A stretch of DNA of 64,000 bases from assembly GCA_964632175.1 (NCBI GenBank), contig CAZWBJ010000002.1:13878-77877 (forward strand). Reading direction: 5' to 3'. The translations under genes and the position numbers were made by a program. The notes under the pieces were generated by a model. It was not told where the DNA came from and did no database searches. It worked only from the letters and a program-made list of their open reading frames with translations. Each line of letters begins with the position of its first letter. The stretch's first letter is position 1. The DNA comes from Candidatus Hadarchaeota archaeon (GTDB lineage: Archaea > Hadarchaeota > Hadarchaeia > Hadarchaeales > JAWBSP01). Shown here one piece after another: positions 5,288 to 58,929 of this stretch.

Positions 5288-6532
5288 ATGCACAAAATAA
5301 TAATGCACAAAATCATAAAGCGTCCAACGGATGTGGACGCCTTCAACAAATTGGGTCCTTGGGTGCTGATTTGCGGTAGGAGGAAAACGGGGAAGACTTT
5401 CTTCGTTCGGGAGTTCCTTGACTGGGACGAATACTTCTTCGTGAAGAGAGGAGGGCGATCGCTGCTTGACGGGGAGGGGAGGGAGCTGAGCTACCCGACC
5501 TTTCTGGAGGTCTTCAGGAGGGATTTTCCAGAAAAGTGCTTCGCCATCGACGAATTCCAGAGACTTCCCGACGATTTCTCCGACCTCCTCCATTCCATGG
5601 GAATGAGGGGGAGGTTGATTGCGGTGACCTCAGCCCTCTCTTTCTCCAAGAAGATGCTGGAAGGCTCTTCTCCCCTTCTTGGGCTTTTCTCCGTTCTCAA
5701 ACTTGGGCTGGTGGACGAAAGGGACATCCTGCTGGGGCTTTCGAGGGAGCTGAAAGGAAGGGAGCTCATCGAGGCATCGGTCTACCTTAGGGAGCCATGG
5801 CTCGTCCCGAGGTTTCGGGGAAGGATGAAGGAGTTCCTCCCATCCTTTCTCTACGAGCAGAGGGGAGCAATCAAGGCGCTGCTCGGCGAGATCTTCACGG
5901 AGGAGGAAAGGGAACTCTCTCTCGTCTACCAGGGAATTCTTGAGGCTGTCGCCATGGGGAAACGGGTAAGCACGGAGATATCCAGCCATCTCTACTCCCT
6001 GGGACTCCTTCCAAAGGACAATCCCGGCGCTATCCAGAGATACCTGGAGGTCCTGGTCGAGACCAATCTCCTCGAGAAGACACCGGTTTACGGATCGAAG
6101 AAGTTCAGATACCGACATGCCTCCCCCCTCCTTGATCTTCACTTCTATCTGGAGGGAAAGTACTCATACACCGAAACGGAAATCCCCGAGCAATTCATCG
6201 GGGAGGTCGTTCAACAGAAGCTACCCGTCCACGTGGAGGAATTCTTCTCCTCCCTTCTCTCCAAACTCCTCGGCCTGAGAAGGGTGGCGGTTGAGGAGCC
6301 ACCCTTAGACATCGCCCTTTTCGAGTTCAAGCGGTTGAAGGTGGTCGGGGAGGTGAAGTGGGGGAAGGTGGAAAAGGAAGAGCTCCAAAGGATAGGAGAG
6401 CGACTGAGAAAATTCGACGCCGAACGGTATCTCATAGTTCCAGAGGATGGGATAGAGCTGGAGGGCGTAAAGGTTCTTGATGTTCCGGCAATCCTAGAAA
6501 TCCTGAAGTCGGGATATCCAAAGGAAGTCTAA
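5288..6532 (+). CDS. Archaeal ATPase family protein (AAA+ P-loop) with a DUF234 C-terminal domain
   Basis: Walker A GRRKTGKT and Walker B FAIDEFQ. The start is probably ATG 5288 or 5303, within a 15-bp tandem duplication that encodes MHKII-MHKII. The six-frame ORF extends back to 5183. Confidence 0.75.
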   Translation: MHKIIMHKIIKRPTDVDAFNKLGPWVLICGRRKTGKTFFVREFLDWDEYFFVKRGGRSLLDGEGRELSYPTFLEVFRRDFPEKCFAIDEFQRLPDDFSDLLHSMGMRGRLIAVTSALSFSKKMLEGSSPLLGLFSVLKLGLVDERDILLGLSRELKGRELIEASVYLREPWLVPRFRGRMKEFLPSFLYEQRGAIKALLGEIFTEEERELSLVYQGILEAVAMGKRVSTEISSHLYSLGLLPKDNPGAIQRYLEVLVETNLLEKTPVYGSKKFRYRHASPLLDLHFYLEGKYSYTETEIPEQFIGEVVQQKLPVHVEEFFSSLLSKLLGLRRVAVEEPPLDIALFEFKRLKVVGEVKWGKVEKEELQRIGERLRKFDAERYLIVPEDGIELEGVKVLDVPAILEILKSGYPKEV

Positions 6533-52384: not shown

Positions 52385-52519
52385 TTAGTACTCCACCGCC
52401 CCGCCGTTGTAGTCTATTCCCATCTCGCTCAAGGGCTTCCCGCAGTGCTTGCAGCGGAGCCTGCCCTCCACCAAGACGCAAGCAACCCGAAGCGGGAGCC
52501 CGCAGTTGGGACAGTTCAT
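52385..52519 (-). CDS. 44-aa zinc-ribbon micro-protein immediately downstream of nrdD
   Basis: MNCPNCGLPLRVACVLVEGRLRCKHCGKPLSEMGIDYNGGAVEY, with CxxC-x15-CxxC. GGGGGTGA lies 5 nt upstream of the ATG. It starts 4 nt after the nrdD stop. The 118-aa six-frame ORF is an upstream extension. Confidence 0.4.
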   Translation of the reverse strand: MNCPNCGLPLRVACVLVEGRLRCKHCGKPLSEMGIDYNGGAVEY

Positions 52520-52523
52520 CTTC

Positions 52524-55500
52524 TCACCCCCTCGTGAAGCTTTTCCTCTGCCTGAACTCCTCCTGCTTTCCCTCGTTCCAGTTCCGAACGGGCCTGAAGT
52601 AGCCCACCACCCTAGAGTAGACCTCGGTCTCATGACCGCAGGAGGGGCAAAGTGGATAGTTTCCCGGGAGGTATCCGTGATTTGGGCAAATCGAATATGT
52701 TGGAGTAATGGTGTAGTAGGGTAGCCTGGAGCGCTCGGCAATCTTCCTCACCAGATTCTTACAGCTCTCGCCGTCCTCCAGGCTCTCCCCAAGGAAGATG
52801 TGAAAGACCGTTCCCCCCGTGTAAAGAGACTGCAGAGGCTCTTGGTGTTTGATAGCCTCCCAAAGATCAAGGTCCGCATCCACGGGAAGCAGGGTGGAGT
52901 TGGTGTAATAAGGGACGTCTTTTCCGGCGGTGATGATATCGGGATACATTCGCTTGTCGATCCTTGCGAGCCTGTAGCTGGTCCCCTCGGCGGGGGTGGC
53001 CTCCAAGTTGTAAAGATGGCCCGTCTCCGCCTGGAATTCCCTGAGCTTTTTGAGCATGAACCTCAGCGTTCGTATAGCAAAGTTCCTTCCTTCCTGCTCC
53101 GCGATGCTGCAACCAAGCAGGTTGAGGCAAGCCTCGTTCATCCCGACCAACCCGATGGTGGAGAAGTGATAATCCAAGGTGCCCAGATATCGTTTGGTGT
53201 AGGGGAGGAGGCCCGAATTCATTTTCCTCGTGACCTCCTTCCTCTTTATCTCGAGAGATATCTTCGCTAAGTTCATGAGGCGCTCCAGATTTTCAAAGAA
53301 CTCGTCCTCGTTCTCCGACAAGTATCCTATTCTAGGCATGTTGATCGTGACCACGCCCACGGAACCCGTTTTATCACCGGCGCCGAAAAGTCCCCCCGTG
53401 ATGTTCCTCCGCAACTCCCTCAAATCGAGCCGGAGATGGCAACACATTGACCTGACATCGCTGGGCCTGAGGTCGGAATTGATGAAGTTCTGGAAGTAGG
53501 GAAGTCCATATTTGGCAGTCATCTCGAAAAGGAGGGAGGAAACCCCGTCGTCCCACTTAAAGTCCCTAGTTAGACCAAAGGTGGGGATGGGAAAAGTGAA
53601 GGGCCTCCCTTCGGCATCCCCTTCCGTCATCACCTCGATGAAGGCCCTGTTGATCAGTTCCACCTCCTCCTCGAACTCCTCGTACGTCCTGTCCAGTGGC
53701 TTGCCCCCCACGATGGCGGGAGTTCTCGCTAGGTCATCGGGCACGGTAAGGCTGAGGGAAATATTGGTGAAGGGGGTCTGCCCTCCCCAGCGAGAAGAAA
53801 TATTCAGGTTGTAGACAAATTGCTGGAGCTTCTGCTTGACTTCCTTGTAGGTCAGCCCGTCCACCTTAACAAAGGGTGCAAGCAGGACATCCACAGCATT
53901 AAAGGCCTGTGCCCCTGCCCATTCGTTTTGAAGCGTTCCCACGAAGTTCGCCATCTGCAGGAGGGCTGTGTCGAGGTGCCGGGGAGGGGTGGAGGAGACC
54001 TTTCCCGGAACCCCATTGAACCCCTCCAGCAGGAGCTGCTGCAGCGACCAGCCCGCACAGTTACCGGACCAGACAAGCTTACCGTTCCTCTCCACGAGCA
54101 GGGTTCCGTTGGGCACGGTCAGATCGTAAACTTTTCCCCTGTACGATACAACTTCCGGTAAGCCGCGGAATTCAGGGGTGAGCTGGTGGTTCTCCACATA
54201 GACGACGTAACCGGTTTTCCTCTTCCTTATCGTACCGCATCTGCCAGTCTTCACCAAGCACTCGACCACATCTTCCGCGAGCCTCTTTGAGGAAGTGTAA
54301 TACGCGATGAGCCTGTCCCCCTTCACCCTCCCGTCCCCTTTAAACAGCTCCCCTAGGAAGGCCGAGAGGAGCTTCGGGTTCAGACGCTTCACTTCCGGGG
54401 GGATGAATTTCTCCCTGCTTCTACCCAGCCTCTTGACGTAGTCAAATACCTGTTTTGAGTAGAAGGTTACGTGAGATTTGGTTATCACAGGTTCAAAGCC
54501 CAACTGCCTGATTATTCTGGCAATCCGGCGCTGGTTACGCTTGTTGACCTGCGAGATGGAAATCCGGTATCCTCCTTTTGAAACGTCGCAGTTACCCTCC
54601 GCTATGTACCACCCCAGGAACCGCACAAAGGTCTCGGTGGGTGGGTCAACGTTTTTGAAGGTCCCTCCCTGCCCGTCAGAATGTACTTCCGGGAGACGCA
54701 ACTCTCCCTCCCCTTCCCAAACGGCATCCTTTCTGAACTCTATCACCCTCCTGTTAGAAAGTTCCGAAGCGGTGACAAACTTCCACTCTGGATCACAGTC
54801 TCCCGGTGCCCTCGGCTTCCTTCCCCGATAAATCCATTCGCTCACAGTCCCCTCGGGGATGCCGATCTCCTTGGAGATCCTGCGGGAGCCCCAACCCCTC
54901 TCCCTGTGTAACTTTAGTGCCTGGAAGTACTTCTGCAGCCTTGTTTCCATCTCTCCGCGCTTCTGCATCCTCCTGCGGATCTTTGTGCGGTTTGGCGGGA
55001 TTCTAACAAGCATGCGATGCTCGGGCGTCACAAGCAGATCGATGCTCCTGTTCCTCCAGTGATACATCGGACCGTCCCAGTCGAAAACTTGCTTGGCTAT
55101 GGGATGCTGAAACTCCAGCCTGCCCGTCTTTAGGTTAAGAGTTGCAACCCTATCGCTTGGTGTCACATCCTTGAAGTATTTGAACCCTTCCTCCGTCAGA
55201 ACCCTAGTTTCCTCATCGAAGCAATAGCCACACAGACCCATTCCCAGATCATGGATGTGGAAGTCGCCGGACACGTGAGCGGCCGCCACCTCAGGTGGGT
55301 AAACCTTTTCGAGAGTGTACCTTGCAATCACCGAGGTTCCAATGTGGAAGAGGAGGCCGGAAAGCGAGTAGCCCATGTTGCTGTTCTCCTTCACCCTCCA
55401 GTCGCTCAGGCTGAGGTAGTCATCCACGAGCTTCCTGACCTGTAGCTCGGCCCTCAGCTTCCTGAGCTCCTCCCTCTGCTTCCGGTAGATGATGAAGGCT

Positions 55501-55763
55501 TTGGCCGTCTTGGCGTGACCACGCTCGATCAGGATCTTCTCGATGGCATCTTGGATCTGCTCCACGTGCGGCGGGTTTTCCGAACCGAAGCCCTGTTTTA
55601 CGAGATAGTTCTCGACCTCCACAGCCAGTCTCTCGGCCCTCCGCTTGTCCCTCCCCCCCACCTCCTGGGCCGCCTTCCAGATGGCGTTGACGATCCTTTC
55701 CCTCTCGTAGGCGACGACCGTTCCATCCCTTTTGATCACCTTGGTCAGAACCATCTCAAACAC
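52524..55763 (-). CDS. nrdD: Anaerobic ribonucleoside-triphosphate reductase (class III RNR) interrupted by a 388-aa intein
   Basis: N-terminal ATP-cone, a C-terminal Zn ribbon CPNHG...CPSCG, and the glycyl-radical motif RVVGYF. The extein is 691 aa; the intein spans aa 181-568. Confidence 0.9.
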   Translation of the reverse strand: MFEMVLTKVIKRDGTVVAYERERIVNAIWKAAQEVGGRDKRRAERLAVEVENYLVKQGFGSENPPHVEQIQDAIEKILIERGHAKTAKAFIIYRKQREELRKLRAELQVRKLVDDYLSLSDWRVKENSNMGYSLSGLLFHIGTSVIARYTLEKVYPPEVAAAHVSGDFHIHDLGMGLCGYCFDEETRVLTEEGFKYFKDVTPSDRVATLNLKTGRLEFQHPIAKQVFDWDGPMYHWRNRSIDLLVTPEHRMLVRIPPNRTKIRRRMQKRGEMETRLQKYFQALKLHRERGWGSRRISKEIGIPEGTVSEWIYRGRKPRAPGDCDPEWKFVTASELSNRRVIEFRKDAVWEGEGELRLPEVHSDGQGGTFKNVDPPTETFVRFLGWYIAEGNCDVSKGGYRISISQVNKRNQRRIARIIRQLGFEPVITKSHVTFYSKQVFDYVKRLGRSREKFIPPEVKRLNPKLLSAFLGELFKGDGRVKGDRLIAYYTSSKRLAEDVVECLVKTGRCGTIRKRKTGYVVYVENHQLTPEFRGLPEVVSYRGKVYDLTVPNGTLLVERNGKLVWSGNCAGWSLQQLLLEGFNGVPGKVSSTPPRHLDTALLQMANFVGTLQNEWAGAQAFNAVDVLLAPFVKVDGLTYKEVKQKLQQFVYNLNISSRWGGQTPFTNISLSLTVPDDLARTPAIVGGKPLDRTYEEFEEEVELINRAFIEVMTEGDAEGRPFTFPIPTFGLTRDFKWDDGVSSLLFEMTAKYGLPYFQNFINSDLRPSDVRSMCCHLRLDLRELRRNITGGLFGAGDKTGSVGVVTINMPRIGYLSENEDEFFENLERLMNLAKISLEIKRKEVTRKMNSGLLPYTKRYLGTLDYHFSTIGLVGMNEACLNLLGCSIAEQEGRNFAIRTLRFMLKKLREFQAETGHLYNLEATPAEGTSYRLARIDKRMYPDIITAGKDVPYYTNSTLLPVDADLDLWEAIKHQEPLQSLYTGGTVFHIFLGESLEDGESCKNLVRKIAERSRLPYYTITPTYSICPNHGYLPGNYPLCPSCGHETEVYSRVVGYFRPVRNWNEGKQEEFRQRKSFTRG
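54060..55223 (-). mobile_element. Intein in nrdD with a LAGLIDADG homing endonuclease domain
   Basis: Starts with Cys (CFDEETRVLTEEGF, block A). LAGLIDADG-like motifs FLGWYIAEGN and LSAFLGELFKGDGRV. Ends in ...LVWSGN followed by the +1 Cys (CAGWSL). The penultimate residue is Gly, not the usual His. Confidence 0.8.
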
Positions 55764-55793: not shown

Positions 55794-56501
55794 TCATGCT
55801 CTCACCCTGCAGACTCCAAAGTGGGGGGAGATCTGCTTCCTCAGCTCATGGAGGAACTCCAGTGGATAGGGCTTGACCGAGGAAAAGGTGGGATCAACCA
55901 ACCTCGGCTCTGGTCTGAACTGTTGCAAGTAGTATCTCTGGGCCCCCTTCAGCTCCTGCGCTATTTGGAGGATGTCCTCTCTGGAGACCAGCCCCGGCAC
56001 CACGGTCGTCCTGAACTCGTAGGGGATGGAGGAGGACATGAGGATTTCCGCCGCCGTCCTCACCTCCCCGACCCCGTCACCTTGGGAAAAAAGGCGGTAC
56101 TTCTCGGGGGTGAGCGGTGCTTTCACATCCAAGGCCACGTAGTCCACCAAGCCCCCACCCACGAGCTTTTGCAGCAGGAGGGGATTCGAGCCGTTGGTGT
56201 CCAGCTTCACCGCGTACCCGAACCCCTTAATCCACTCAAGGAGCTGGGGAAGATCTTGGTGGATGGTGGGCTCCCCCCCGGAAATCACAACCCCGTCCAG
56301 CCAGTCCTTCCTAGAGCGGAAGAACCTATCGAGGTCCTCTTGGCAGGGAGAGGGCAGTGAGGAGGGGTTGAGGACTAAGTCGGCGTTGTAGCAGTAGGGA
56401 CACCTGAAGTTGCATCCCCCCAAGAAAAGTACCGAGGCTATCTTCCCCGGAAAGTCGATTAGGGAAGTCTTGAGAAACCCCTTTATGTTTTCAAAGATCA
56501 T
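55794..56501 (-). CDS. nrdG: Anaerobic ribonucleotide reductase activating protein (radical SAM)
   Basis: CNFRCPYC radical-SAM cluster motif; 235 aa. Confidence 0.85.
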   Translation of the reverse strand: MIFENIKGFLKTSLIDFPGKIASVLFLGGCNFRCPYCYNADLVLNPSSLPSPCQEDLDRFFRSRKDWLDGVVISGGEPTIHQDLPQLLEWIKGFGYAVKLDTNGSNPLLLQKLVGGGLVDYVALDVKAPLTPEKYRLFSQGDGVGEVRTAAEILMSSSIPYEFRTTVVPGLVSREDILQIAQELKGAQRYYLQQFRPEPRLVDPTFSSVKPYPLEFLHELRKQISPHFGVCRVRA

Positions 56502-56510
56502 CAGACCCCC

Positions 56511-56632
56511 CGTTACACTTCTGGTAACACTCCTTAAAAGTGTTACGGTTCTTGTAACGATTTAAAAGGAAGGACTTTTTGAGCTTGATTTTTCTTCGGA
56601 CCGCAACTTATAAATGTTACGGTTTACATAAC
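56511..56632. promoter_or_regulatory. Divergent promoter region with three copies of the palindrome GTTAC-N7-GTAAC (56512-56528, 56542-56558, 56616-56632) interleaved with TATA-like elements (56534-56540, 56561-56569, 56608-56616)
   Basis: Read directly from the sequence. Site 1 is GTTACacttctgGTAAC, site 2 is GTTACggttcttGTAAC, and site 3 is GTTACggtttacATAAC. Sites 1 and 3 overlap the expected transcription start sites of nrdG and the wHTH gene respectively. Confidence 0.5.
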
Positions 56633-56640
56633 AAATAACA

Positions 56641-57333
56641 ATGGAGGAAGTGAGGAGGGAGAAAGCCCCCGAGATCCTGGCTGCTCTGCTCTCGAGACCC
56701 AGGGGGGTGAGGGAACTATGGCAGGCAGTGGGGGGGAGTCCCAACACCGTCGAGCTGAGGGTGAAGGAGCTCCAGAGGGCGGGCTTGATCCAAGAGGGAC
56801 AATCGGAGACTTGGCCCTATAAAAAAGTCCTTTCCCTCACGGACAAGGGAAGGAGGGTGGCGGAGATGCTCAGACTCCAGACCTCCCTAACGGGACCCCT
56901 AAGGAGACCCACGGAGGAGGAACTCAAGGAAAGGGGAAAATGGCTCCTCTCCCTTCTTCACGTGCTGGGTGGGAGCCTGGAGGGCGCGGTCAGACTCCAG
57001 AAGCTCGTCTTCCTCATGAAGAAGGAACTCGGAATGGAGGTGCCCTACCAGCATGTGCCCTTCCAGCATGGACCCTTCTGCGGGGAGATCTACGAGGACC
57101 TGATGGATTTGGAAAGCGCCGGCTGGGTGAGCGTGGTGAGGGAGTTGGCCGAGCCCGTTCTGGTCTCGCTGACGGAAGAGGGGAAGAGGGTCGCCGAAGA
57201 GACCTTCCACTCCCTATCCAAGGAAGCCAAGGGGAACTGGGAGAAGCTGAAAGAGTTCAACCGGATGCCACTCTCGCAGCTGCTGGAGTACGTCTACACG
57301 CGCTACCCGAAGGAAAGCAGGATGCTGGGCTAG
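56641..57333 (+). CDS. Winged-helix DNA-binding domain fused to a DUF4065 (Panacea-like) domain; putative transcription regulator
   Basis: N-terminal wHTH (TVELRVKELQRAGLI). The C-terminal region LQKLVFLMKKELG...FQHGPFCGEIYEDL matches the DUF4065 consensus KLQKLLYFA...WKYGPVVPEVYEEL. Confidence 0.55.
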   Translation: MEEVRREKAPEILAALLSRPRGVRELWQAVGGSPNTVELRVKELQRAGLIQEGQSETWPYKKVLSLTDKGRRVAEMLRLQTSLTGPLRRPTEEELKERGKWLLSLLHVLGGSLEGAVRLQKLVFLMKKELGMEVPYQHVPFQHGPFCGEIYEDLMDLESAGWVSVVRELAEPVLVSLTEEGKRVAEETFHSLSKEAKGNWEKLKEFNRMPLSQLLEYVYTRYPKESRMLG

Positions 57334-57953
57334 GGCCTGCCCGTCTCCCTCATCTTCTTGAGGTCCTCAAACAGGGGCGGGGCCACTTGGTAAACTAGGT
57401 CAAACATCTTTTGGGCCATCCTCCTTATTTCCCACTGGGATTCCTCATGCAGCCTCAGCCTGAAGAAGTGCCTGAGTTCGCGGGCATTCACCGTCCAGTA
57501 CATCTTGGTCTCGGTGGCGTTCGTCAGCACGTACCGGGCGTCCTCCTTCCTCACCCCGGCTGCCACCAGCCCCCTGTAGAGCTCGAAGGACTTCCTCACG
57601 AACTCCTCCATCTTCTCCCTCTGCTCCCGCCTCACCTCCTCGGGGAGGTAATCGAGCGGGGGCAGCACGTACCTCCCCTTCCCCTCATCCACCCTCCTCT
57701 GACTGCGCTGGGTGAAGGAGCAGACGCGGTGCCTGACCCACTGGTGACTGAGGGCCCTCGAGATCCCCTCCACCCTGAAGGTGAAGGAGGCGTGCTCCAA
57801 GATGCTCTCGTGACCCAGCCTGATGATTTTCTGCACGAAGGCCCCGTAATCCTCTTTTTCCTCCTTGTCGTAGGAGACCCCCGCCGCCCTCCCGCAGACC
57901 TCCACCGGGTTAGGCGTGTAGGCCACCAGCTCAACCTTCAACTCGGCTTCCAT
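57330..57953 (-). CDS. thyX: Flavin-dependent thymidylate synthase
   Basis: ThyX motif SHQWVRHRVCSFTQRSQR (RHR...S); 207 aa. Confidence 0.9.
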   Translation of the reverse strand: MEAELKVELVAYTPNPVEVCGRAAGVSYDKEEKEDYGAFVQKIIRLGHESILEHASFTFRVEGISRALSHQWVRHRVCSFTQRSQRRVDEGKGRYVLPPLDYLPEEVRREQREKMEEFVRKSFELYRGLVAAGVRKEDARYVLTNATETKMYWTVNARELRHFFRLRLHEESQWEIRRMAQKMFDLVYQVAPPLFEDLKKMRETGRP

Positions 57954-58929
57954 GCCTCCTCACCTCAAGCAGCTTCTTCTTGTAGGACCCCGTATCTTCT
58001 TTCACCCAGTCCTCCACATCGAGTTTCAGAATGGATCCGTCGGCCCTCTTTATCACCACCCTCTTTATCCCGGCGTTGATGAGCACCCTTTTGCACCGGT
58101 CGCAGGGCCTCCCCTCCACCAAGCTCCCGTCCCTATAGTCCTGCCCGTAGAGGTAGAGGGTGCCACCTAGAACGCTCGCCCCGTGCCTCGCCGCGTTGAT
58201 GATGCAGTTCTCCTCCGCGTGGACACCGATGCACCACTCGTATCCCGTGTAGTGCGGAACCTTCATCTCCTCCTTAAGACAGCCGACCTCCATGCAGTTC
58301 ACCACCCCCCTCGCGGGGCCGTTGTACCCCGTGGAGACCACTACGTCCTCCTTCACCACTATCGCCCCGAACTGGCGCCGGATGCAGGGTGACCTCTGGG
58401 CCACGGACTTGGCTATCCCCAAGTAATACTCATCCTTGCTGGGGCGAGTGTCCATCTTCACCTCCCCCACGATTACCTTTCCCTCCGGAGTTATCTCCCC
58501 CCGCCTCACCCTCTCGGAAGAGATGGGAAGCCCGTCCTCCGCCAGCACCCAAGGGATCACCACGATATCGAGCGGCTTCAGCCCCCTCTCCCCCCGCAGC
58601 TTGTTTATCTCTCGGGCGGCTGGCTCCGTTTCCTCGCTCACCACGATGGCCTCCAGCTCCGGGTCCTCGGGCGCTGGCCCAAAAGGATCCTCCAAGGTGA
58701 AGACGATGGCCCTTTCCTCCCAGCCCCTCGAGCGCAGAAAGTCCCTGACGTTCTGGGTCCTGAGTTCCAGAGATTGGGTGACCCCCTTCCTGCTGGCAAG
58801 CTTCTCGCCCGAGATACCCAAGAGAACCTTCTCCCCGAGCTCGAAGGCCTTGGAGAGGAGGGCTTGGTGCCCCCGGTGGAAGTGCTCAAAGGTGCCACCC
58901 ACCGCCACCTTTCTGTACTTAGCCTGCAA
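57931..58929 (-). CDS. Continuous ORF fusing an N-terminal archaeal phosphopantetheine adenylyltransferase (PPAT) to a C-terminal dCMP deaminase
   Basis: aa 1-158: VAVGGTFEHFHRGH, IVVSEETEP, ISSERVRRGEI (archaeal PPAT, COG1019). aa 159-332: MDTRPSKDEYY...HAEENCIINAARHG...PCDRCKRVLINAGIKRV (dCMP deaminase Zn motifs). There is no stop codon between the two parts. Confidence 0.75.
   Translation of the reverse strand: MQAKYRKVAVGGTFEHFHRGHQALLSKAFELGEKVLLGISGEKLASRKGVTQSLELRTQNVRDFLRSRGWEERAIVFTLEDPFGPAPEDPELEAIVVSEETEPAAREINKLRGERGLKPLDIVVIPWVLAEDGLPISSERVRRGEITPEGKVIVGEVKMDTRPSKDEYYLGIAKSVAQRSPCIRRQFGAIVVKEDVVVSTGYNGPARGVVNCMEVGCLKEEMKVPHYTGYEWCIGVHAEENCIINAARHGASVLGGTLYLYGQDYRDGSLVEGRPCDRCKRVLINAGIKRVVIKRADGSILKLDVEDWVKEDTGSYKKKLLEVRRHGSRVEG

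Follow-up and report, generated by a model that had tools for sequence, protein, structure and literature searches.

What controls the anaerobic ribonucleotide reductase (RNR) genes of an uncultured archaeon, and what is the role of the divergent gene that shares their upstream region? The locus that raises this question lies in a 64,000-nt stretch of DNA from Candidatus Hadarchaeota archaeon (GCA_964632175.1, contig CAZWBJ010000002.1, positions 13,878 to 77,877, forward strand), referred to here as the window. A gene encoding a two-domain protein is separated by 139 bp from nrdG, the first gene of a presumed nrdG-nrdD operon read in the opposite direction. This protein, called the regulator below, very probably controls the synthesis of DNA precursors as a local, so far undescribed regulator. 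Sequence comparison makes it probable that it acts as a dimeric, autoregulated local repressor of nrdGD, recruited from a regulator family associated with defence or toxin-antitoxin systems and carrying a Panacea-like sensor. The regulator gene and the elements upstream of it are:

56641-57333, plus strand: regulator gene, 230 aa, divergent from nrdG.
56512-56528: operator O1, GTTACACTTCTGGTAAC, a perfect GTTAC-N7-GTAAC, 10 bp from the nrdG start codon.
56542-56558: operator O2, GTTACGGTTCTTGTAAC, a perfect GTTAC-N7-GTAAC with the top position weight matrix (PWM) score.
56616-56632: operator O3, GTTACGGTTTACATAAC, with one mismatch (right half ATAAC); putative autoregulatory site between the regulator TATA box and the gene start.
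56623-56639: operator O3', TTTACATAACAAATAAC, degenerate (2 mismatches), offset 7 bp from O3 and overlapping it.
56608-56615, plus strand: TATA box of the regulator gene, TTATAAAT, seen in the sequence; it abuts O3 and starts 33 bp upstream of the ATG.
56532-56539, minus strand: TATA-like box, CCTTAAAA (minus strand TTTTAAGG), between O1 and O2; putative nrdG promoter element.
56560-56567, minus strand: second TATA-like box, ATTTAAAA (minus strand TTTTAAAT), next to O2; possible distal nrdG promoter.

The palindrome is concentrated in this gap far beyond chance. With at most one mismatch, GTTAC-N7-GTAAC matches the 64 kb window three times, always between nrdG and the regulator gene; dinucleotide-preserving shuffles of the window (n = 100) give a mean of 0.27 matches per 64 kb, and none of the 100 reaches three. 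An earlier, sequence-only reading of this DNA had described three palindromes here, each beside a TATA-like element. The palindromes are found at 56512, 56542 and 56616 and the TATA-like elements beside them are present, but the array is made up of three sites plus the overlapping degenerate one, O3', which reaches as far as the regulator gene's predicted transcription start and its start codon. That reading had also suggested a motif scan to define a regulon, and within the window no sites were found beyond the gap. A 17-bp PWM built from 29 orthologous sites has no further match of at least 14 bits in the 64 kb, the best outside the gap reaching 11.0 bits. Two-mismatch matches elsewhere in the window number 10, against about 7 expected, and were judged to be background. 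In the PWM the spacer lacks symmetry (R-n-T-T-t-n-Y), and its orientation is always toward the regulator gene. O1 and O2 are 30 bp apart, start to start. An Rfam search of 56300-56800 returned only noise, so riboswitch and small RNA readings of this region were dropped.

Close homologues of the regulator are few, forming seven clusters at 64-100% identity. In a scan of one genome per species, full-length orthologues occurred only in Hadarchaeota/Hadesarchaea metagenome-assembled genomes (MAGs), at 42-69% identity; the scan patterns would miss many distant two-domain relatives, so this restriction holds for close relatives. We compared the window with 14 other Hadarchaeota-type loci (five metagenomic and nine genomic), whose regulators are 42-89% identical to that of the window. 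The regulator gene is divergent from nrdG-nrdD in all 14. The sequence-only reading had named this synteny as a check, and it holds for every orthologue examined, with the palindromes kept between the genes. Divergence from nrdG is seen even in L068 (43% identity), where the other flank carries IMPDH, GMP synthase and pyrimidine biosynthesis genes, and in L065 (39% identity) a regulator relative is divergent from nrdD itself. The flank opposite nrdG varies, with thyX, dCMP deaminase without thyX, a 5-kb insertion, unrelated genes, or the IMPDH/GMP synthase/pyrimidine set. The 5-kb insertion (L004 6634-11815, L005 2569-7750) separates the regulator gene from thyX in an orthologous locus at 78% identity. 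Within it are toxin-antitoxin genes (PIN and MazE), AAA ATPase/DUF4143 genes and small open reading frames (ORFs), and the nrdG-regulator pair is untouched.

The operators are conserved along with the gene order. In the 14 further loci, the 1,834 bp between nrdG and the regulator gene hold 26 sites with at most one mismatch, and the other 137,289 bp hold none. When five close intergenic regions are aligned, the half-sites are invariant, apart from a degenerate O1 and one O3/O3' change in L006, while spacers and flanks diverge and whole segments are deleted. Both half-sites of O2 are unchanged in five of five regions, and O1 is kept in four of five, with a comparable nrdG-proximal site in most of the distant loci. 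The TTTAC block and both ATAAC blocks of O3/O3' are nearly invariant, and O3' recurs in L004, L006, L009, L010 and L011. The operator between the regulator TATA box and the ATG is the only one present in every locus. In 12 of 15 loci, 8-11 nt separate the end of the last site from the regulator ATG. The operator nearest the ATG directly adjoins an AT-rich TATA-like element in every Hadarchaeota-type locus but one (the element is weak in L004). On the nrdG side, 10 of 15 loci have a consensus site no more than about 30 bp from the start codon, and eight loci contain site pairs spaced 30-31 bp apart. In the shortest intergenic regions, of about 75 bp (L014, L016, L018), one AT-rich box is flanked by two operators, one toward nrdG and the other toward the regulator gene. 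L012 (~5845-5895) and L019 (~5840-5890) have intergenic regions of about 210 bp; near nrdG, a GTTAT-N14-GTAAC arrangement around a TTTTTAAAA box replaces the N7 palindrome and may represent an alternative operator geometry.

The motif also accompanies the protein family away from nrd genes. Many two-domain relatives at 30-41% identity carry it in their own promoters, where it immediately follows the TATA box and comes within a few bases of the ATG. Perfect sites occur upstream of the relatives in L077, L078 and L079, where a TATA-like element again abuts the ATG-proximal operator, and a one-mismatch site occurs in L073. Variants are TTTAC-N7-GTAAT (L071, L072) and GTTAC-N8-GTAAC (L075, L076, L082 and L084; degenerate in L081). 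In these five N8-type loci the site stands directly after TTTAAAT, and a second element, ATAGTAAC, lies next to the start codon; this subgroup could serve to study how a dimer tolerates changes in spacing. Over the loci of the distant relatives we counted 8 sites in 3,459 bp of upstream DNA and 7 in 95,914 bp elsewhere. Homologues that have only the C-terminal domain (67 loci) show no sites in 19.9 kb of upstream DNA and five in 631 kb overall. The motif therefore appears to travel with the N-terminal winged helix of the two-domain family, and its distribution is strong comparative evidence that the regulator would bind GTTAC-N7-GTAAC.

The positions of the operators suggest what binding would do. 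In archaea, the TATA box is usually centred about 25-26 bp upstream of the transcription start. The box at 56608-56615 thus predicts a regulator transcript starting at about 56638, and, since this box begins 33 bp before the ATG, the mRNA should have no leader or almost none; O3 and O3' would cover -23 to +1 of this promoter. On the other strand, the box at 56532-56539 predicts an nrdG start near 56509. O1 lies between that box and the predicted start, at roughly -19 to -3, and O2 would lie over the B recognition element (BRE), at the upstream edge of the proximal TATA box and directly downstream of the second TATA-like box. The proximal box is kept as CTTAAAA, ATATAAG or TATAAAA in five of five aligned regions. 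The second box, at 56560-56567, is not conserved throughout: the window, L006 and L010 have it, and L004 and L009 have lost it by deletion. Were it used, nrdG transcription would begin near 56537; O2 would then occupy the repressing position and O1 would fall within the leader. As the sequence-only reading had proposed, the operators are predicted, from their distance to the TATA boxes, to overlap the start sites of both divergent genes. In each predicted geometry a bound protein would be expected to exclude the transcription machinery.

In the regulator protein, an HxlR-type winged helix (residues ~7-84) is followed by a low-confidence linker (~85-92) and a Panacea/DarG-C-like domain with an embedded winged helix (~93-226). 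The N-terminal assignment made by the sequence-only reading is well supported. PF01638 (HxlR) matches residues 12-78 at 24.9 bits against a cut-off of 20.8, and also matches 28 of 80 family members (best E 5.8e-12). The AlphaFold2 (AF2) model of the full-length protein, with a predicted local distance difference test score (pLDDT) of 82.8, folds the N-terminal segment (H8-18, H23-30, H34-46, E50-54, E62-66) as a winged helix. Foldseek with this model returned only generic MarR-type winged-helix matches (MarR, ZitR, YodB, AF1382).

The C-terminal domain is more divergent. The sequence-only reading had called it a DUF4065/Panacea domain, but PF13274 (threshold 25.7 bits) does not match the regulator even at E<=10, either with the full protein or with the C-terminal domain alone. 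A profile of this domain retrieves 4,571 cluster representatives at E<=1e-3, and among close relatives (E<=1e-22 to the domain profile) 14 of 80 individually match PF13274, with a best E of 1.4e-8. One of the relatives, P0013, aligns to positions 2-107 of the 113 in the PF13274 profile; the protein P0003 is named YwgA by the Joint Genome Institute (JGI). Several PADLOC models that include this type of domain match the regulator: PDC-M19A (3.5e-12), the C-terminus of a type I specificity subunit, and DarG over residues 157-269 (7e-4). Modelled alone with AF2, the domain reaches a pLDDT of 94.1 and folds compactly into helices and a beta-hairpin, like the C-terminal domain of DarG. The closest Foldseek match is the toxin-binding C-terminal domain of Mycobacterium tuberculosis DarG (E 7e-4). 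A profile search of the Protein Data Bank (PDB) found mostly MarR and PadR proteins, through the embedded winged helix, and DarG at E 0.004. DUF4065 proteins are homologous to the DarG C-terminal domain (PMC13621843), and Panacea consists of helices alpha1-alpha7 and strands beta1-beta2 (PMC10440598), a description with which our model is consistent. The PF13274 matches of relatives, the PADLOC matches and the DarG-like fold place the domain in the Panacea/DarG-C superfamily. It is a divergent member of that superfamily and, by the Pfam criterion, not a member of PF13274. The Panacea call of the sequence-only reading is supported by these three indirect lines.

These observations suggest the following mechanism. 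The N-terminal HxlR-type winged helix most likely binds GTTAC-N7-GTAAC as a dimer. Because the operators lie directly downstream of the TATA boxes of the two divergent promoters, or bracket them, the bound regulator would block recruitment of TATA-binding protein (TBP), transcription factor B (TFB) and RNA polymerase. Occupancy of O3/O3' would repress the regulator's own, predicted leaderless gene, and occupancy of O1/O2 would repress the nrdG-nrdD operon. O1 and O2, spaced 30 bp or about three helical turns, would lie on the same face of the DNA, a layout suggestive of cooperative binding. The Panacea/DarG-C-type domain may serve as both dimerisation and sensor module, with a protein partner or a ligand as the signal that switches DNA binding. 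The regulator, which has no toxin partner, would have been recruited from an archaeal family whose other members head or flank defence systems.

Several points weigh against this interpretation. The nrdG-side operator is degenerate (L006, L011), lost (L015) or non-canonical (L012, L019) in five of 16 loci, so the comparative data support autoregulation better than control of nrdGD, which seems to be less universal. The position of O2, upstream of the conserved nrdG TATA box, is one from which archaeal regulators can also activate. The Panacea assignment lacks a direct PF13274 match. All genomes compared are uncultured MAGs. Our motif scan covered about 10 kb per locus and one 64-kb window, and a regulon wider than the nrd locus is possible given that scope. 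The sequence-only reading had offered two options, a functional NrdR analogue that represses nrdDG or a domesticated antitoxin-type regulator. Synteny, operators and the lack of a toxin gene speak in its favour, though autoregulation stands on firmer ground than repression of nrdDG.

The imbalance between the two sides of the array speaks for another reading, that of an orphan or degenerating antitoxin-type autoregulator. Such a protein would repress only its own gene, adjacency to nrdG would be inherited synteny, and the nrdG-side sites would strengthen autoregulation through cooperativity or looping. Consistent with this, the operator between the regulator TATA box and ATG is the sole constant of the array, the nrdG-proximal site is weak or missing in the five loci named above, and most other family members sit in defence or toxin-antitoxin-like contexts. 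Inherited synteny, however, does not easily explain why adjacency to nrdG is kept down to 42% identity while the opposite flank was repeatedly rearranged, the 5-kb insertion included. Nor would a purely autoregulatory protein be expected to keep a consensus site so near the nrdG start codon in two-thirds of the 15 loci. In the ~75-bp regions, the one AT-rich box between the two operators must serve both genes, and no toxin gene is present. We consider autoregulation of its own gene only to be unlikely.

It is also conceivable that the regulator activates nrdGD, or does so while repressing itself, with O2 binding upstream of BRE/TATA to recruit TBP/TFB and O3 repressing its own gene. Archaeal regulators with a dual function set by site position are established (TrmBL1, SurR, Ptr2), and O2, the best-conserved site, is directly upstream of the conserved nrdG-side TATA-like box. 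O1, however, is kept in most loci at a repressing position, between the nrdG TATA box and the start codon, and the loci with short intergenic regions have their nrdG-side operator downstream of the shared TATA box. This makes activation improbable. Still less probable, and in our view very much so, is that another factor binds the palindromes, or that they are structural or RNA elements, and that the winged-helix gene is unrelated to them. The pairing of regulator and motif is deduced from comparison, and five-base half-sites are short. Against this, the motif follows the two-domain family into unrelated contexts, is missing from the upstream DNA of homologues that have the C-terminal domain alone, and does not occur in the rest of the window; Rfam has no match, and 5-bp arms with variable 7-nt spacers make poor hairpins. 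A repressor of both divergent promoters therefore remains the reading we prefer.

The neighbours of the regulator gene in the window are:

55794-56501, minus strand: nrdG, radical-SAM activase of NrdD and first gene of the presumed target operon (NCBIfam TIGR02495 NrdG2, 182 bits against a cut-off of 131).
52524-55763, minus strand: nrdD, anaerobic (class III) ribonucleotide reductase and second gene of the presumed target operon (Pfam NRDD 615 bits, N-terminal ATP-cone 70 bits, LAGLIDADG_3).
57330-57953, minus strand: thyX (Thy1, 218 bits), converging on the regulator gene.
57931-58929, minus strand: PPAT-like/dCMP-deaminase fusion (Pfam and NCBIfam matches).

With nrdD, nrdG, thyX and the dCMP-deaminase fusion around it, the regulator gene is placed within a cluster for deoxynucleotide metabolism. 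The sequence-only reading had identified nrdG and the convergent thyX correctly, as the TIGR02495 and Thy1 matches show. It was also right that no toxin gene adjoins the regulator gene, since its neighbours are nrdG (divergent) and thyX (convergent), and the same holds across the orthologous loci. The regulator stop codon and the 3' end of thyX overlap by 4 nt (57330-57333), which leaves no space for terminators between these convergent genes.

Other features of the cluster deserve mention. NrdD contains a LAGLIDADG intein of about 390 aa, with a helix-turn-helix (HTH), inserted after about residue 180; the NrdD orthologues in L007 and L009 are 688 aa long and lack it, and the L012 NrdD tblastn match appears to be split at a different place, which may point to another insertion. 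Directly downstream of nrdD (52385-52519, minus strand) is a 44-aa CxxC...CxxC zinc-ribbon ORF (MNCPNCGLPLRV...). A 44-aa zinc-ribbon gene is called at the same position in L001, L004, L007 and L009, so the ORF may be a third member of the nrdGD operon. The gene at 57931-58929 (minus strand) encodes one 332-aa protein with a PPAT/CoaD-like cytidylyltransferase domain and a dCMP deaminase domain. The halves are separate called genes in L006 and L008, and L011 and L013 give a two-part tblastn match. The fusion gene overlaps thyX, points toward it, and forms one operon with proline biosynthesis genes.

Where the family occurs away from nrd genes, its company is different. The paralogues tabled here (30-40% identity, same two-domain architecture) are either the first gene of a defence system or neighbour to one:

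L077 and L078: ubiquitin-like protein and BilC/BilD-type E1; perfect operators.
L072: type IIG restriction-methylase; TTTAC-N7-GTAAT operator.
L071: C-5 methylase; TTTAC-N7-GTAAT operator.
L066: HmaC/DUF499, DUF1156 and a TIR protein; loose resemblance to the operator only.
L067: Nmad3, PD-(D/E)XK nuclease and MkoA-like helicase; no operator.

Within the family, it is the Hadarchaeota clade that is linked to a core metabolic operon, with no toxin gene adjoining. The two-domain family may be a general regulator of defence systems in archaea, and paralogues with the same operator that head Bil, restriction-modification, Hma and TIR loci could aid the annotation of archaeal defence islands. A bolder version of this idea is that the Panacea/DarG-C domain of the regulator keeps the sensing role of its paralogues and couples a virus or DNA-damage cue to transcription of the anaerobic RNR, with the winged-helix-Panacea family and its operator acting generally in archaea as a master switch of defence systems (Bil, type IIG restriction-modification, Hma, TIR). 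We think this quite unlikely. If it were true, Hadarchaeota would restrict or boost their deoxynucleoside triphosphate supply transcriptionally, as part of an infection or stress response.

There are several reasons why the locus may be of wider interest. Transcriptional control of RNR is well understood in bacteria through NrdR. In the literature that we could search, with incomplete coverage, we met no account of such control in archaea, of a regulator of this type dedicated to archaeal RNR, or of a GTTAC-N7-GTAAC operator; this counts only as absence of evidence. The locus offers, for a phylum of uncultured archaea, a testable set of parts (a regulator, an operator defined to the base pair, and a target) in 15 natural variants. 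If our interpretation is correct, it would be a clear case of an antitoxin-type Panacea/DarG-C domain, without a toxin, serving as effector module of a housekeeping regulator. Such a regulator bears on the question of what Panacea domains sense, since Panacea has been proposed to be a sensor and can take part in dimerisation (PMC10440598).

In architecture, the closest known proteins are the HTH-PanA antitoxins of PanAT systems, which fuse an N-terminal HTH to a Panacea-superfamily domain. HTH-Panacea fusions were already known as antitoxins, which amends the sequence-only reading, and 343 PanA proteins with an N-terminal HTH are inferred to autoregulate (PMC8832971). In contrast to these, the regulator is monocistronic, has no adjoining co-oriented toxin gene, and is fixed beside a housekeeping operon across the phylum; it also falls below the PF13274 threshold, has an HxlR/MarR-type winged helix and comes from archaeal hosts. 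DarG of DarTG (PDB 7YK3) is different as well. It has an N-terminal macrodomain and binds the DarT toxin, neither of which is found here, and sequence identity is only 11-16%.

In mode of action, the regulator would resemble archaeal repressors whose binding sites lie downstream of the TATA box and ahead of the transcription start, such as MDR1, Phr, TrmB and NrpR. As with these, the palindromic operators of the nrdG-regulator gap abut or overlap TATA boxes and predicted starts, where a bound protein would block polymerase recruitment, and the divergent promoters would be autoregulated. The regulator differs from them in protein family, in operator sequence and in its antitoxin-type effector domain. 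Transcription factors attached to defence systems are known as well, including restriction-modification controller proteins and the BrxR/CapW WYL regulators. Paralogues of the regulator similarly head or adjoin Bil, type IIG restriction-modification, Hma and TIR systems with the same type of operator; the regulator, however, is neither Xre-type nor WYL, and the window copy is attached to a core metabolic operon.

The closest functional analogue of the proposed regulator is NrdR, a dedicated and often autoregulated repressor at RNR promoters. The sequence-only reading had not expected NrdR in archaea, but it does occur in some of them (PMC9110341). The NrdR sites are two 16-bp boxes, each a partial palindrome, joined by a linker of 15-16 bp, so that they stand ~31 bp, or about three helical turns, apart (PMC13584703, PMC9110341). 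O1/O2 and the pairs in seven other loci are likewise 30-31 bp apart. This is a functional analogy only, as the box sequences are unrelated and the proteins are not homologous. NrdR has a Zn-ribbon and an ATP-cone, neither of which is among the Pfam or NCBIfam matches of the regulator, whose putative sensor domain is instead of the antitoxin type. Set beside all of these systems, what we favour as new here is a winged-helix local repressor that appears to have exapted an antitoxin-type domain as its effector.

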